Below, in pieces: positions 1,357-5,057 of a stretch of DNA of 5,057 bases. This DNA comes from a virus (taxonomy: Duplodnaviria > Heunggongvirae > Uroviricota > Caudoviricetes). The translations under genes and the position numbers were made by a program. Where the stretch lies: IMG/VR virus record IMGVR_UViG_3300029749_000526. One strand, written 5' to 3'. Positions within the stretch are counted from its first letter, which is position 1. The number at the start of each line of letters is the position of its first letter. The notes under the pieces are model-generated. The model was not told where the DNA came from. It worked only from the letters and a program-made list of their open reading frames with translations, and searched no databases.

Positions 1357-1367
1357 GTGGAGTGGAT

Positions 1368-3764
1368 ATGGCAGCAGTAAAAATCTCAGGTGTGCTGAAA
1401 GATGGTGCGGGAAAACCAATACAGAACTGCACTATTCAACTGAAGGCAAAGCGTAACAGCACCACGGTACTGGTGAACACGGTGGCTTCTGAAAATCCGG
1501 ATGAAGCCGGACGTTACAGCATGGATGTTGAGTATGGCCAGTACAGCGTCACCCTGCTGGTTGAAGGTTTTCCGCCTTCACATGCCGGGACCATTACCGT
1601 CTATGAAGGTTCCAGACCAGGTACGCTGAATGATTTTCTCGGTGCCATGACGGAAGATGATGTCATGCCGGAGGCATTGCGCCGTTTTGAGGCAATGGTG
1701 GAAGAAGCGGCACGCAACGCCGAAGCCGCCTCTCAGAGCGCAGCGGCGGCAAAGAAATCCGAAACTGCAGCGGCATCATCGAAGAACGCGGCGAAAACCT
1801 CAGAAACGAATGCAGCTAACAGCGCACAGGCGGCAGCGGCCTCGCAGACTGCATCGGCAAACTCCGCGACAGCAGCCAAAAAATCAGAAACCAACGCGAA
1901 AAATAGCGAGACAGCCGCAAAGACGAGCGAAACCAACGCAAAGTCCAGCCAGACGGCAGCGAAGACCAGCGAAACGAATGCCAAAGCCAGCGAAACTGCG
2001 GCGAAAAGCAGTCAGGATGCAGCAGCTGAAAGCGAGAGTGCCGCAGCTGGTTCTGCGACTTCAGCAGCTGGATCAGCAACTGCTGCGGCTAACAGCCAGA
2101 AAGCAGCGAAGACGAGCGAAACCAACGCAAAGTCCAGCCAGACGGCAGCGAAGACCAGCGAAACGAATGCCAAAGCCAGCGAAACTGCGGCGAAAAGCAG
2201 TCAGGATGCAGCAGCTGAAAGCGAGAGTGCCGCAGCTGGTTCTGCAAGTGCGGCGGCTGCTTCTGCCACTGCATCAGCAAACAGTCAAAAAGCTGCAAAA
2301 ACCAGTGAAACCAACGCAAAGGCGAGCGAGACTGCGGCGGCTAACTCGGCGCAAGCATCGGCAGCAAGCCAGACAGCAGCTAAAGCAAGTGAAGACGCAG
2401 CCAGAGAGTATGCAAGTCAGGCAGCAGAGCCGTATAAATATGTCTTACAGCCACTGCCTGATGTGTGGATACCGTTTAACGATTCACTGGAAATGATTAC
2501 TGGTTTCGCCCCAGGTTATAAAAAAGTCACTATCGGTGATGATGTTATTACTTTTCCATCAGAGAAGGTTGTATCTTTCACCCGCTCTACTTCTGCAACA
2601 TATATAAACAAATCAGGTTCGTTTACTTTTGCAGAAATTAACGAGCCGCGCTTTGAAAAGGAAGGTTTATTAATTGAAGGTCAGAGGACAAATACATTTA
2701 CTAATAGCAATAATCCTTCATTATGGAACTATGACGACAAGAATATAGAAATAACCACATCGGTTGATGAATATGGTTTTAAATATGGTTTGTTCGATGT
2801 AAAGGAAACATCAACCACTGAAAGGGCGACGATAATATCTACTGGATACAGTAGGGTTATTGATGTTGCTGCAAATGAATCTGTTACCTTGTCCTGTAGG
2901 GTTAAGAAGATAAATGGAGAAGGTATTATAACGTTAAGACCCAGAATATCTTTCGTTAACGATGACGGCACAAGCAACACGCTGGTAGCTGGTTCCTACA
3001 TAGATTGCGAAACTGGTGATGTTTTAGGTTTTTCTGGTGGGGATGCTGTAAATCATGTCATATACAGAGAAGCTAACGGATGGTTACGCGTCGAATTTAC
3101 ATATAAATCACCAGAAGCAAAAAGCATGTATGGGCGCTTTGAAATGGGAGCAGATAAAAGGGCGATCAAAAAAGGCGATCAGATAATGTTTACTACGCCG
3201 CAATTTGAAAAAGGATCGTGTGCATCATCATTTATCGTTACATCAGATGTGGCAGTTACACGGGCTAGTGACGTGGTAATAATGCCAATAAGACTGAACT
3301 GGTCAACACCTCCGTTAAGCGTTCTTATGGAAGTTAATATCAACTGGGACAAAATGCCAAACAGTGAAGGTTCAGCAAGGCTTCTTAACGTGTCAATAAC
3401 TGGCGCAACAACGGATGTTGCTGATGAAAGTTATATGTATTTTGGTTTTACCTCTGGAGGCGCGCGCTCAATTATAACTAACGGAAAAGGAACAAAGACC
3501 GAGTATAAAGCCTACTGTAACAGGACAACCCGCAGGTTTATTGCTGGGTTTAAGTTTACAGAGCAGAAAGAATTGCGTGCTGTTATAAACGGTAACTTTG
3601 GCGCTGTTGGTGTATCACAACACACAAGACAACGTTATACAGAAGGGCCAATAAATATAGGCGGTCAATCAATATCAGGTAACAGGCATTTATTTGGACA
3701 CGTGCGCAATTTACGTATCTGGCATAAGGAACTGACAGATGCACAAATGGGAGAAAGAATATAA
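1368..3764 (+). CDS. stf: Side tail fibre protein (lambda Stf-like N-terminus and repetitive shaft, with a divergent C-terminal distal domain)
   Basis: Long ORF ending at TAA 3762-3764. I place the start at ATG 1368 (GGAG at 1359-1362, 5-nt spacer) rather than the in-frame GTG at 1362 used by the ORF track. The N-terminus (MAAVKISGVLKDGAGKPIQNCTIQLKA…RYSMDVEYGQYSV…GFPPSHAGTITVYE) matches my recollection of the lambda Stf N-terminal region. The central region is Ala/Ser/Thr-rich with reiterated KTSETNAK-type motifs, typical of fibre shafts. The C-terminal ~440 aa are compositionally distinct and not lambda-like. Confidence 0.85.
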   Translation: MAAVKISGVLKDGAGKPIQNCTIQLKAKRNSTTVLVNTVASENPDEAGRYSMDVEYGQYSVTLLVEGFPPSHAGTITVYEGSRPGTLNDFLGAMTEDDVMPEALRRFEAMVEEAARNAEAASQSAAAAKKSETAAASSKNAAKTSETNAANSAQAAAASQTASANSATAAKKSETNAKNSETAAKTSETNAKSSQTAAKTSETNAKASETAAKSSQDAAAESESAAAGSATSAAGSATAAANSQKAAKTSETNAKSSQTAAKTSETNAKASETAAKSSQDAAAESESAAAGSASAAAASATASANSQKAAKTSETNAKASETAAANSAQASAASQTAAKASEDAAREYASQAAEPYKYVLQPLPDVWIPFNDSLEMITGFAPGYKKVTIGDDVITFPSEKVVSFTRSTSATYINKSGSFTFAEINEPRFEKEGLLIEGQRTNTFTNSNNPSLWNYDDKNIEITTSVDEYGFKYGLFDVKETSTTERATIISTGYSRVIDVAANESVTLSCRVKKINGEGIITLRPRISFVNDDGTSNTLVAGSYIDCETGDVLGFSGGDAVNHVIYREANGWLRVEFTYKSPEAKSMYGRFEMGADKRAIKKGDQIMFTTPQFEKGSCASSFIVTSDVAVTRASDVVIMPIRLNWSTPPLSVLMEVNINWDKMPNSEGSARLLNVSITGATTDVADESYMYFGFTSGGARSIITNGKGTKTEYKAYCNRTTRRFIAGFKFTEQKELRAVINGNFGAVGVSQHTRQRYTEGPINIGGQSISGNRHLFGHVRNLRIWHKELTDAQMGERI
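1920..2245 (+). repeat. In-frame tandem direct duplication inside the stf shaft region (two copies of about 137 bp at a 189-bp period)
   Basis: The segment about 1920-2056 (…gacgagcgaaaccaacgcaaagtccagccagacggcagcgaagaccagcgaaacgaatgccaaagccagcgaaactgcggcgaaaagcagtcaggatgcagcagctgaaagcgagagtgccgcagctggttctgc) recurs at about 2109-2245 with apparent nucleotide identity. It encodes AKTSETNAKSSQTAAKTSETNAKASETAAKSSQDAAAESESAAAGSA twice. The 189-bp period equals 63 codons, so frame is preserved. Confidence 0.8.
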
Positions 3765-4045
3765 TGCGAGACTTAACCCTCAAATTCATAAACAAGGCCG
3801 ACTTTTCGGCCTTTATGGATAGCATTGGTTATGAAGATGACGAGGTAATGCAGAACAATGTTCTCATTGATGTGATAGGTAACGTGTACAAAGAAACCGG
3901 AGAACTTACTGAAGATGGCGAACCGGTATGTGTTAAGGAAGACGGATATTTTGTAAACGTGCGCATCATTAATGATGTGAAAACACCGTCAATATTCGAT
4001 GAATACGTGGTTGCTGTTGAGCATCAACTTCGTGGCTGGATGTGA
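3764..4045 (+). CDS. Hypothetical small acidic protein (93 aa), translationally coupled to stf; possible fibre accessory or chaperone protein
   Basis: The ATG at 3764-3766 overlaps the stf TAA stop (ATAATG) by 1 nt. GGGAGA lies upstream at 3749-3754. The ORF ends at TGA 4043-4045. The translation has 19 Asp/Glu against 8 Lys/Arg (estimated net charge about -11). I recognise no family from the sequence alone. Confidence 0.55.
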   Translation: MRDLTLKFINKADFSAFMDSIGYEDDEVMQNNVLIDVIGNVYKETGELTEDGEPVCVKEDGYFVNVRIINDVKTPSIFDEYVVAVEHQLRGWM

Positions 4046-4054
4046 GGGAGACAA

Positions 4055-4756
4055 ATGGCTACATCGACAGTAATTCCAGGAGATATCACCACGCTAAAGG
4101 GAGATGTCAGTAAAACTAAGGAAGATATTTCCTCAATTAACGGAAAAGTATCAACGCTTCAGATTGATATGACCAGTGCAAAGCAGGATATCAGCACCAG
4201 ATACACAAAAACTGAAGTTGATAATAAGCTGAAAAACAAAGTGGAAGCGAACGATCTGGAAAGCGGTCGTTATGGCGGTGATTTTTACCCGCTGACAGGT
4301 CGTGAAGCGTTTTATTTATGGAATTTGGCCACGACTACAGCTGCGGCAAACCTTTATCTTAATCCTGACCCCGCAATTTCGTCTGTTCTGCGGTCAACAT
4401 CGTCTATCCGCTATAAACATTCAGTAGAGACGATAGATTCAGAGCACGCCGATCTCATTTTCAAGATGCGCCCTGTGTGGTACAGGTCGCAATGCGAAAA
4501 TGACAGGCGTGACTGGGGATTCTACGGATTGATTGCCGAGGAAGTAGGAGAAATTGCCCCTCAGTTTGTACACTGGCGACCAGCTAACGAAGATGATGCA
4601 CCGGAAGCTATTTCCAGCAATGGCCTTGTTGCCGAAGGTGTGATGTACGAACGTCTGGTTGTTCCACTGATTCACCATATCCAGAAACTGACAGAAAGAG
4701 TTGATGAACTTGAGTCAGAATTAAAGCTGTTATCAACTTCCCGAAGCGATATCTGA
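4055..4756 (+). CDS. Tail-fibre-like protein with an N-terminal coiled-coil segment and a C-terminal peptidase S74-like intramolecular chaperone domain
   Basis: AGGGAG Shine-Dalgarno at 4045-4050, 4 nt before ATG 4055. The C-terminal ~115 aa (SSIRYKHSVETIDSEHADLIFKMRPVWYRSQ…GFYGLIAEEVGEIAPQFVHW…GLVAEGVMYERLVVPLIHHIQKLTERVDELESELKLL) follow the pattern I recall for the S74 chaperone-of-endosialidase domain (SDxxLKxNI…L+PVxY…GxIAQEVxxxxPElV…, ending in a coiled-coil). The N-terminal ~100 aa (DITTLKGDVSKTKEDISSINGKVSTLQIDMTSAKQDIS…) are heptad-like. Confidence 0.75.
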   Translation: MATSTVIPGDITTLKGDVSKTKEDISSINGKVSTLQIDMTSAKQDISTRYTKTEVDNKLKNKVEANDLESGRYGGDFYPLTGREAFYLWNLATTTAAANLYLNPDPAISSVLRSTSSIRYKHSVETIDSEHADLIFKMRPVWYRSQCENDRRDWGFYGLIAEEVGEIAPQFVHWRPANEDDAPEAISSNGLVAEGVMYERLVVPLIHHIQKLTERVDELESELKLLSTSRSDI

Positions 4757-4769
4757 TAAAGGAGGAGTA

Positions 4770-5057
4770 ATGGATATAAGCCCCTTACTTCATGCGCTTT
4801 GTGCTGTGGCTGCGCAGGTACTGGTTGGTTTTTTTACCGGAAACTGGGCTTACGGGGCGATAGCCGGTTGTACATTCTTCATTGCGCGGGAACACACCCA
4901 GGCAGAATATCGCTGGATTGAAATGTTCGGGCATGGCAAGCGGATTAACATGCCATGGTGGGGCGGTTTTGATCCACGTGCATGGGATGTGGCAAGCCTG
5001 ATGGATTTTGCTGTGCCGGTGGTGGCGTGTCTGCTGATCTGGATGTTGATCCGTTAA
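4770..5057 (+). CDS. Hypothetical small membrane protein (95 aa, 2-3 predicted transmembrane segments); possible moron or superinfection-exclusion candidate
   Basis: Strong Shine-Dalgarno AAAGGAGGA at 4758-4766, 3 nt before ATG 4770. The ORF ends at TAA 5055-5057. Hydrophobic stretches at residues ~5-22 and ~26-39 (PLLHALCAVAAQVLVGFF, WAYGAIAGCTFFIA) and ~74-94 (VASLMDFAVPVVACLLIWMLI) are separated by a charged, Trp-rich loop (REHTQAEYRWIEMFGHGKRINMPWWGGFDPRAW). It starts 13 nt after the preceding gene. Confidence 0.6.
   Translation: MDISPLLHALCAVAAQVLVGFFTGNWAYGAIAGCTFFIAREHTQAEYRWIEMFGHGKRINMPWWGGFDPRAWDVASLMDFAVPVVACLLIWMLIR

Follow-up and report, generated by a model that had tools for sequence, protein, structure and literature searches.

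The window analysed here, a 5,057-nucleotide stretch of a tailed phage genome (IMG/VR record IMGVR_UViG_3300029749_000526), carries on its plus strand an 800-aa side tail fibre gene, stf (1362..3764), whose product matches Pfam phage_tail_N with an E-value of 1e-66 and PHROG 1419. It is followed by ORF93 (3764-4045), which encodes an acidic protein of 93 aa and 10.7 kDa matching PHROG 1361, and by the gene of a very short second fibre-like protein (4055..4756, 233 aa) with a putative docking peptide, a coiled coil and a Peptidase_S74 domain. A 95-aa hydrophobic protein (4770..5057) of PHROG 1443, a family of unknown function, closes the module.

The genes are closely packed. The stf stop codon (TAA, 3762-3764) and the ORF93 start codon (ATG, 3764-3766) have one base in common (TAATG), as had been noticed originally, and the coupling site (3750..3766) includes an SD-like GGAG at 3750-3753, 10 nt upstream of the ATG. 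In 82 of 88 related loci the stop codon of the preceding fibre gene and the start codon of the ORF93 homologue overlap by 1 or 4 nt. The spacer between ORF93 and the second fibre (4046..4057, including the second-fibre ATG) comprises 9 nt with GGGAGA as SD sequence, and this spacing was again the same in 82/88 loci. No convincing promoter or terminator was found inside the stf-ORF93-second fibre stretch. The layout places ORF93 inside the late fibre operon, translationally coupled to stf; fibre and ORF93 share one late transcript, and the coupling favours roughly 1:1 production.

The PHROG 1361 profile matched ORF93 with an E-value of 3.1e-44, residues 1-93 aligning to profile positions 1-92 of 92. 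By this match ORF93 is an ordinary member of a family without assigned function; PHROG matches were limited to two families, both of unknown function. The identical protein was recorded on 146 contigs, the reading frame was intact in 88/88 related loci examined, and pairwise dN/dS among related loci was about 0.33. Because of this family match, the identical copies, the intact frames and the low dN/dS, ORF93 is a real gene and not a chance ORF. Of 5426 complete E. coli genomes, 980 (about 18%) contained it. A scan of species-representative genomes returned only 3 loci, of which one lies on a contig that is probably mis-binned, a weak result because the single search pattern was narrow.

The structure of ORF93 was predicted to be a compact alpha/beta domain (b-a-a-b-b-b-b-a) followed by a C-terminal tail. 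The tail (..LRGWM; conserved pattern ..P.R.W) contains an invariant R90 and a nearly invariant W92. Its column identity is 0.87-0.95, yet its pLDDT is lower (67-81), and conservation combined with lower pLDDT is the pattern expected of a partner-binding motif. The tail is retained in ev017, ev243 and L088, all of which are without the second fibre.

Searches for relatives outside the family gave little. Against Pfam, ORF93 had no match at E<=0.1, and Caudo_TAP, the family of lambda Tfa, was not detected at E<=1 in any of 31 family members. Pfam, NCBIfam and PDB sequence searches with ORF93 and these 31 members returned nothing meaningful, the best PDB E-values (0.24 and 0.57) being at chance level. 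PHROG 1361 has no Pfam or NCBIfam model, and no solved structure of the family was found. The predicted fold had no convincing match, and none to a known DNA mimic or a known fibre chaperone. Among 50 cluster representatives, no natural fusion of ORF93 with a fibre was found; two long repetitive proteins were discounted as fusions, the match spanning only about 30 residues. The dissimilarity to lambda Tfa claimed in the original prediction was thus confirmed, with no Caudo_TAP or other Pfam match.

The strong acidity also held exactly as stated at the outset, with 10 D and 9 E against 5 K and 3 R (19 vs 8), a computed pI of 4.21 and a net charge of about -11. Such charge is common to ORF93 and the DNA mimics Ocr and ArdA, and it had been put forward, as the less likely of two readings, that ORF93 might be an acidic DNA mimic. 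On this reading, ORF93 would mimic DNA, or have some other anti-defence or lysogenic-conversion function, and lie beside the fibre gene by chance, for which the net charge and the frequent presence of accessory genes downstream of lambdoid fibre genes could be cited. Beyond charge, we found nothing to favour mimicry: no relation of ORF93 to a known DNA mimic was found in sequence or fold, and its predicted alpha/beta fold is unlike known DNA mimics. For a protein of the Ocr or ArdA type one would expect expression early or from a leading region, apart from the structural genes; ORF93 lies in the late fibre operon, a placement that recurs in five phage groups. Wedged between fibre genes, it overlaps the first by 1 nt, lies 9 nt before the second and has no convincing promoter or terminator of its own. 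The same layout is kept in virulent T5-, T1- and rV5-like phages, and ORF93 is consistently tied to one type of fibre head. We therefore regard a DNA-mimic or other chance-neighbour role as extremely improbable.

To what kind of fibre is ORF93 tied? Stf consists of an N-terminal phage_tail_N anchor, an Ala-rich repetitive rod, a beta-sandwich and a lectin-like head. The beta-sandwich (aa 437-635) resembles the GTA head-spike fibre (NCBIfam GTA_spike_fiber, E 1.5e-20; PDB 6tb9 Rcc01080, E 6e-7). The head (about aa 640-800; 3279..3761) is of the ConA/LamG/pentraxin/CBM40 type as judged by AF2, Foldseek and Laminin_G_3. The AF2 model of the head was all-beta with a pLDDT of 71, and Foldseek returned 231 PDB matches at E<=1e-3 to lectin-like domains (that of BoNT Hc, pentraxin and CBM40). 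Pfam Laminin_G_3 matched Stf up to its C-terminus with an E-value of 7e-5 and a score of 23.4 bits, below the cut-off of 27.6. In 8 of 9 diverse homologues it was the sole family match at the upstream C-terminus, one of these being above the cut-off. The head is thus predicted by modelling to fold as a ConA-like lectin. The last 160 aa of Stf are basic (pI 9.9, charge about +7), so that ORF93 and the head bear opposite charges (about -11 and +7).

The pairing of ORF93 with this head was strict. ORF93 homologues directly followed a protein with the lectin-head tail motif, that is, the motif of the last 40 residues of Stf (...GNRHLFGHVRNLRIWHKELTDAQMGERI; 3642..3761), in 87 of 88 loci, and the motif was still recognisable in six distant loci. 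The lectin head was found upstream of ORF93 in lambda-, T1-, T5-, rV5- and Dhillonvirus-like phages, and six metagenomic relatives with 31-37% identity also lay directly behind a lectin-headed fibre. Among phage records, the head was found in 203 and ORF93 in 187, with near-identical taxon profiles; two of the apparent gaps were checked, and both carried divergent family members (profile E 1e-18 to 1e-19). Neither an ORF93 away from a fibre gene, in the contexts examined, nor a confident structural match to an unrelated family, the two observations that had been named as counting against a fibre-linked role, was found.

Strict pairing with a probable carbohydrate-binding head, together with the complementary charges, could also mean that ORF93 caps or regulates the head by masking its glycan-binding face, for example to keep it from binding host glycans or debris too early, while virions are assembled and released, with no role in folding or in anchoring another fibre. 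The persistence of ORF93 in loci without a second fibre would suit such a cap. Glycan-binding faces are variable, however, and ORF93 is highly conserved, we know of no precedent, and the link of ORF93 to the docking peptide described below would be left unexplained. We consider this role unlikely.

Conservation along the locus was sharply bounded. Column identity was 0.65-0.83 over Stf residues 761-800 against 0.27-0.48 over the preceding 80 residues, 0.84-0.98 over most of ORF93, and 0.93 and 0.84 over residues 1-20 of the second fibre before dropping to 0.13-0.54. A conserved island thus runs from the final 40 residues of Stf through ORF93 to residue 20 of the second fibre, with hypervariable sequence on both flanks. 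Mean identity was about 87% for ORF93 but about 56% for the lectin head, which fell as low as about 30%. Pairwise ORF93 identity correlated with that of the second-fibre N-terminus (r 0.55) and hardly with that of the head (r 0.19). Co-variation of ORF93 with a specific head variant was rejected on these values. That ORF93 stays so similar while the head diverges argues that it is tied to the head class and to its conserved last 40 residues, and not to a specific swapped variant. The original prediction had proposed a fibre chaperone or adaptor that came in with this particular Stf C-terminal domain: a link to the C-terminal module agrees with all the context evidence, and co-occurrence with one swapped domain had to be given up. 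ORF93 forms the middle of a conserved joint that links two variable receptor-binding fibre genes, and the likeliest role for such a protein is as a subunit for fibre assembly or as an adaptor.

The known proteins closest to this description in position are lambda Tfa, Mu U and P2 G (Caudo_TAP), which are likewise products of a small gene that immediately follows a side tail fibre gene and is expressed together with it. They are presumed to act on the C-terminal end of the fibre, and some Tfa-type proteins remain bound to the tip. ORF93 differs from them in several respects: it has no sequence or profile similarity to them, is only about half as large, consists of one conserved domain without a tip-specific variable domain or a fibre-binding part that co-varies with the tip, and has as its partner a globular lectin head rather than a beta-helical fibre tip. 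It could nevertheless be a transient chaperone, absent from the virion, that assists folding or trimerisation of the lectin-headed fibre from its C-terminal end, acting in trans as Tfa-type proteins do, or as S74 does in cis; in that case the second fibre would attach to Stf itself. A position right behind the fibre gene with translational coupling is typical of tail-fibre assembly genes, the protein is small, acidic and complementary in charge to the head, and it is kept where no second fibre is encoded. Its distribution in Vequintavirus-like phages may also fit. Only 36 such records carry an ORF93 homologue; they include EmilHeitz and JeffSchatz, the latter with a fibre gene that has the lectin head at its end. 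The 36 matches to the JeffSchatz homologue do not include phage rV5. A preprint describes the EmilHeitz fibre as lectin-headed and the alternative allele of MaxTheCat as ending in an S74 chaperone domain. Against a chaperone speak the lack of co-variation with the variable head body, unlike the tip-binding domains of Tfa-type proteins, and the lack of sequence or fold similarity to known fibre chaperones. ConA-like domains, moreover, generally fold unaided, and a chaperone would not explain why the second-fibre peptide occurs only beside ORF93. We regard a purely transient chaperone as possible but somewhat doubtful.

The second-fibre N-terminal peptide (MATSTVIPGDITTLKGDVSK; 4055..4114), a putative docking peptide, forms the downstream edge of the junction cassette. 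Its pattern is M.T.T.IP.DI..LK, of which M.T.T.IP was present in 82/88 loci. In enterobacterial phage records the peptide was found only where ORF93 was present, 9-19 nt downstream of it. In T5-like AKFV33 it is kept as MTTYTNIPQDITKLK beside a diverged ORF93 homologue (orf136) that tblastn with the window protein no longer detects. The rest of the second fibre contains a Pfam Peptidase_S74 intramolecular chaperone (aa 116-172, E 3.7e-6), also matches the C-terminus of PHROG 3299 and PDB 8hqz_d (DT57C LtfA); a receptor-binding domain is almost lacking. A second fibre with the conserved N-terminal peptide is usually located downstream of ORF93; it is absent in ev017, ev243, L088 and JeffSchatz, though ORF93 is kept there.

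A direct counterpart of stf-ORF93-second fibre is gp22-gp23-gp24 of phage IrisVonRoten: Stf and Gp22 share 41% identity over 724 aa, ORF93 and gp23 share 39%. In published models the proximal fibre Gp22, whose C-terminal domain is galectin-like, carries the distal fibre Gp24, and the small gene gp23 between them goes undiscussed (PMC11990801). The locus type is that of the two-protein or branched lateral fibres of T5-like phages (DT57C LtfA/LtfB; IrisVonRoten Gp22/Gp24), in which a distal fibre is carried by a proximal one; these are described as two-protein fibres, without discussion of a small middle gene (PMC4728585, PMC10713586, PMC11990801). The gene is never mentioned in the LtfA/LtfB and BASEL collection papers. 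No proteomics or cryo-EM assignment for the ORF93 family was found in the literature; the virion study of AKFV33 analysed four gel bands only. In DT57C LtfA, rod and distal fibre are fused in one chain, and lectin head, ORF93 homologue and peptide are absent alike.

In the T4 long tail fibre, the genes are ordered as their products are in the fibre (proximal, joint, distal), and a fibre joint or trimerisation requires small accessory proteins (gp35/gp36; chaperone gp57A). ORF93 has no detectable homology to these proteins, and gp35 and gp36 are much larger, so that the comparison is one of analogy only. For a structural joint protein one would expect both partner fibres to be always present and conserved elements to flank it on both partners; such elements are found at the ORF93 locus, where the upstream lectin-headed fibre is always encoded and the second fibre is sometimes absent.

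We prefer to see ORF93 as a dedicated accessory subunit of lectin-headed side or lateral fibres, and in particular as a joint adaptor that is retained, a reading to which we give, tentatively, a little less than an even chance. The acidic surface of ORF93 and its ..P.R.W tail would bind the basic, conserved C-terminal face of the lectin head, and ORF93 would remain on the fibre end as a constant piece of a joint made of the C-terminal 40 residues of Stf, ORF93 and the N-terminal 20 residues of the following fibre protein. The M.T.T.IP.DI..LK peptide would dock onto this joint, and the upstream lectin head and the downstream distal fibre may thereby be independently exchangeable; where no second fibre is present, ORF93 would merely cap or stabilise the head. 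A bolder version, that ORF93 is a universal-joint protein of the virion that clamps three lectin heads and captures the N-terminal peptide of a separately encoded distal fibre, is conceivable, though we hold it to be rather less than probable. If true, lambda-, T1-, T5- and Dhillonvirus-like phages would build branched two-storey fibres from swappable receptor-binding modules.

The O-antigen and glycan host range of many coliphages, and of very common E. coli prophages, is determined by side and lateral tail fibres, and about 18% of complete E. coli genomes contain the stf-ORF93-second fibre junction. Should ORF93 be needed to assemble lectin-headed fibres or to attach a second fibre to them, then fibre swaps, host-range prediction and structural models must include it; current structural models of such fibres contain only two large proteins. 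The conserved cassette of Stf tail, ORF93 and docking peptide marks natural break points for the exchange of receptor-binding modules. The family has a narrow taxonomic range and probably plays an auxiliary part; assigning it is therefore a useful annotation rather than a conceptual surprise. In ev017 and ev243, the PHROG 1443 protein that closes the module in the window was found directly after ORF93.

The window is the distal end of a lambdoid tail module, carrying the C-terminus of J (13-636), lom (704-1303), a strong terminator-like hairpin (1330-1351), the side tail fibre gene stf (1362-3764, 800 aa), the acidic 93-aa ORF (ORF93, 3764-4045), a 233-aa fibre-like protein with a Peptidase_S74 intramolecular chaperone domain (fibre 2, 4055-4756) and a 95-aa hydrophobic protein (4770-5057). 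The four genes from stf onwards are separated by -1, 9 and 13 nt, and no convincing promoter or terminator was found between stf and the 95-aa gene, where site counts were at shuffle level. Within stf, a 189-bp unit with 42-bp sub-repeats is repeated 2.3 times (1901-2339, 87% matches). It codes for an Ala/Ser/Thr-rich rod (..AAKTSETNAKSSQTAAKTSETNAKASETAAKSSQDAAAESESAAAGSA..) and is a likely source of variation in fibre-shaft length.

ORF93 is a real gene. As the original prediction had it, the stop codon of stf (TAA, 3762-3764) overlaps the ATG of ORF93 (3764-3766), by one base, and the protein is strongly acidic (19 D/E against 8 K/R). GGAG lies 10 nt upstream, the pI is 4.21 and the net charge about -11. 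Charge is the single feature that agrees with a DNA mimic or anti-defence gene, the second function then proposed, which we consider highly improbable. ORF93 is an ordinary member of PHROG 1361, a family of unknown function whose profile covers it end to end (E 3e-44). Purifying selection was shown across 88 related loci, in all of which the ORF was intact (pairwise dN/dS ~0.33). The identical protein was present on 146 contigs, with hundreds of close variants in E. coli, and the junction region occurred in 980 of 5426 complete E. coli genomes, at up to 5 copies per genome, where PGAP labels ORF93 'hypothetical protein'. Its family is a narrow one, with only 50 matches at E<=1e-3, fragments in many cases, from an exhaustive HMMER search of 1.84 billion cluster representatives; a single narrow search pattern found three loci among 185,579 species-representative genomes. 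One homologue, 84% identical to an E. coli prophage protein, lay on a 2.8-kb contig binned as a Collinsella MAG (JAGZNZ010000051.1), a placement that is most likely a binning error. The AF2 model (31 sequences in the input alignment, mean pLDDT 88.5, pTM 0.76) predicted a compact alpha/beta domain consisting of a strand, two helices, four strands and a short helix. The C-terminal tail after it is modelled less confidently, yet R90 is invariant there and W92 nearly so across the family.

By tblastn, 187 phage records contained ORF93 homologues. They comprised lambda-like, Drexlerviridae, Dhillonvirus, Tequintavirus/Epseptimavirus and Nonagvirus/Seuratvirus-like records and part of Vequintavirus, and nearly all are annotated as adjoining a tail fibre gene. 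In 82 of the 88 loci analysed base by base, ORF93 overlaps the end of the upstream ORF by 1 or 4 nt, and the upstream protein ended in ..IGGQ..G.RHLFGH[IV][RK]N[FL]R[IL]WHK[AE]LTD.Q.. in 87. In the sole exception (L061, locus about 2772-5000), the Stf-like ORF before an intact ORF93 begins the head region (..NVAPRIFDF..) and ends in ...VFAGRTDVRKFIGEY, without the lectin-head tail; its head may have been truncated or replaced. The same context was kept in IrisVonRoten gp22/gp23 (T5-like), JeffSchatz gp26/gp27 (rV5-like), G3B1 (T1-like), Ioannina (Dhillonvirus), AKFV33 orf137/orf136 and PhiR47_1. Similarly, in six metagenomic relatives, 31-37% identical to ORF93, the motif was still recognisable, in variant form, at the end of each upstream protein, one of which had a precomputed Laminin_G_3 match. 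Of nine diverse upstream C-termini, eight had Laminin_G_3 as their only Pfam match, which always ran to the last residues of the protein. The AF2 model of the last 200 Stf residues was an all-beta sandwich that matched the botulinum toxin Hc lectin-like domain, pentraxins and CBM40 (231 PDB matches, E<=1e-3). The C-terminal region upstream of ORF93 is a ConA-like lectin domain (the head). In agreement, the corresponding domain of IrisVonRoten Gp22 has been described as 'galectin-like' (PMC11990801), and a 'lectin-like head D69' was described for the EmilHeitz fibre (bioRxiv 2024.10.28.620165). The domain preceding the head (Stf aa 437-635, window 2670-3266) matched NCBIfam GTA_spike_fiber (E 1.5e-20) and, among solved structures, Rcc01080, the head spike fibre of RcGTA (PDB 6tb9, E 6e-7); therefore, Stf has two tandem beta-sandwich domains, which probably bind glycans.

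The converse was approximately true as well. The head was found in 203 phage records, whose taxon profile matches that of the 187 records carrying ORF93, and two apparent gaps, on examination, both held divergent family members (profile E 1e-18 to 1e-19). Strict co-occurrence of ORF93 with the lectin head, and its co-transcription and translational coupling with the lectin-headed fibre, were shown. Some records named 'Campylobacter phage' or 'Listeria phage' (e.g. MG065676.1, OR848352.1) carry fibre modules identical or nearly so to those of rV5-like and T5-like coliphages, with a 100% match to JeffSchatz gp27 over 110 aa, which suggests mislabelling or contamination. In a proteome study, the lectin-headed ORF137 of AKFV33 ran at 95.8 kDa (PMC3326045). 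The calculated masses are 83.1 kDa for ORF137 and 10.1 kDa for orf136, its ORF93 homologue; the gap is probably anomalous SDS-PAGE migration, though an SDS-resistant complex may be the cause.

Downstream, fibre 2 started exactly 9 nt past ORF93 in 82 of 88 loci, beginning with M.T.T.IP.DI..LK, a putative docking peptide. Among enterobacterial phage records this peptide occurred only where ORF93 was present, and its start lies 9-19 nt past ORF93 in each of the 13 records that appear in both search listings. AKFV33 keeps a recognisable version (MTTYTNIPQDITKLK); its orf136 was absent from the listed tblastn matches and was found only with the ORF93 family profile. Mean column identity over 55 non-redundant loci was 0.27-0.48 for Stf 681-760, 0.65-0.83 for Stf 761-800, 0.84-0.98 for ORF93 (0.66 for residues 71-80), 0.93 and 0.84 for fibre 2 residues 1-20, and 0.13-0.54 for residues 21-50. 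Identity of ORF93 correlated more closely with that of the fibre 2 N-terminus (r 0.55) than with that of the head (r 0.19). Thus, ORF93 forms the centre of a conserved junction cassette, with a hypervariable receptor-binding module on either side. Its anticipated association with this particular Stf C-terminal domain holds for the class of head but not for the head variant.

The fibre 2 body is variable (233/234, 346 or 574 aa), with the S74 domain at its end in most loci. The 346- and 574-aa versions have real distal domains, and the 233-aa protein of the window comprises the conserved peptide, a short coiled coil and the chaperone (aa 116-172). S74 chaperones are autocleaved in other S74 fibres; if so here, a stub of ~115 aa would remain, lacking any obvious receptor-binding domain. 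The BASEL annotators gave short homologues in KurtStettler and KarlJaspers the label 'putative lateral tail fiber chaperone'. ORF93 also occurs without such a fibre 2, being followed directly by a 97-aa membrane protein in ev017 and ev243, by an S24 peptidase gene in L088 and by an unrelated 196-aa protein in JeffSchatz. This persistence would be accounted for if ORF93 were a transient chaperone for lectin-headed fibres, the main rival explanation and a plausible one, which nevertheless leaves unexplained both the missing co-variation with the head and the link to the docking peptide.

ORF93 would bind the head: its net charge of about -11 is complemented by one of about +7 on the last 160 residues of Stf. 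The conserved, low-confidence ..P.R.W tail is the likely docking motif, and its retention in phages without fibre 2 argues that its partner would be the head and not the distal fibre. That ORF93 merely masks the head as a regulator seems improbable. In the version we prefer, tentatively and at somewhat short of even chances, ORF93 stays on the head as a constant joint element that takes the N-terminal peptide of the distal fibre, which would account for the fused fibre of DT57C, for the conserved island and for the occurrence of the peptide only beside ORF93. When the DT57C locus was compared with L002 and the AKFV33 locus, LtfA (locus 2980-6210, 1076 aa) aligned with IrisVonRoten Gp22 only over the N-terminal 200 residues, and its residues 508-1073 aligned with the distal fibres Gp24 and AKFV33 orf135 (45% identity). 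LtfA is therefore a natural fusion, with rod and distal fibre in one chain. The lectin head, ORF93 and docking peptide are all absent from DT57C; the three come together where the fibre is divided between two polypeptides. The comparison of Vequintavirus alleles, partly literature-based, agrees with a chaperone. Only 36 Vequintavirus records have an ORF93 homologue, JeffSchatz and EmilHeitz among them. The JeffSchatz fibre gene ends in the lectin-head motif. The EmilHeitz fibre is described as lectin-headed, whereas the alternative allele of MaxTheCat is described as ending in an S74 intramolecular chaperone (bioRxiv 2024.10.28.620165). The prediction of a fibre chaperone or adaptor was broadly right, with lectin-head co-occurrence and the junction cassette added and the tie to one head variant dropped.

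In function, ORF93 comes closest to the Tfa-type proteins of fibre assembly and to proteins at the joints of multi-part fibres, such as T4 gp35/gp36 and those in the branched fibres of DT57C, phiEco32 and CBA120, but it belongs to none of these families. The expected lack of similarity to lambda Tfa was borne out by the failed Caudo_TAP profile match, and a tip co-variation test for Tfa-type membership failed too. In the available papers on these loci, the fibres are presented as consisting of two proteins, and the small middle gene goes unmentioned; in the IrisVonRoten RefSeq record, gp23 is labelled 'tail fiber protein' without comment. ORF93 is common and comes from an existing, unannotated family, and so counts as a fibre accessory protein, a known kind, rather than as a novel type of system. 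As far as we found in the literature, neither the strict lectin-head rule nor the junction cassette has been described, and both can be tested directly. The 95-aa hydrophobic protein belongs to PHROG 1443 (function unknown), with no Pfam or NCBIfam model. In the lambdoid loci examined, its gene is the last of the fibre module; in ev017 and ev243 it comes directly after ORF93. The protein could be a membrane moron, e.g. for superinfection exclusion.
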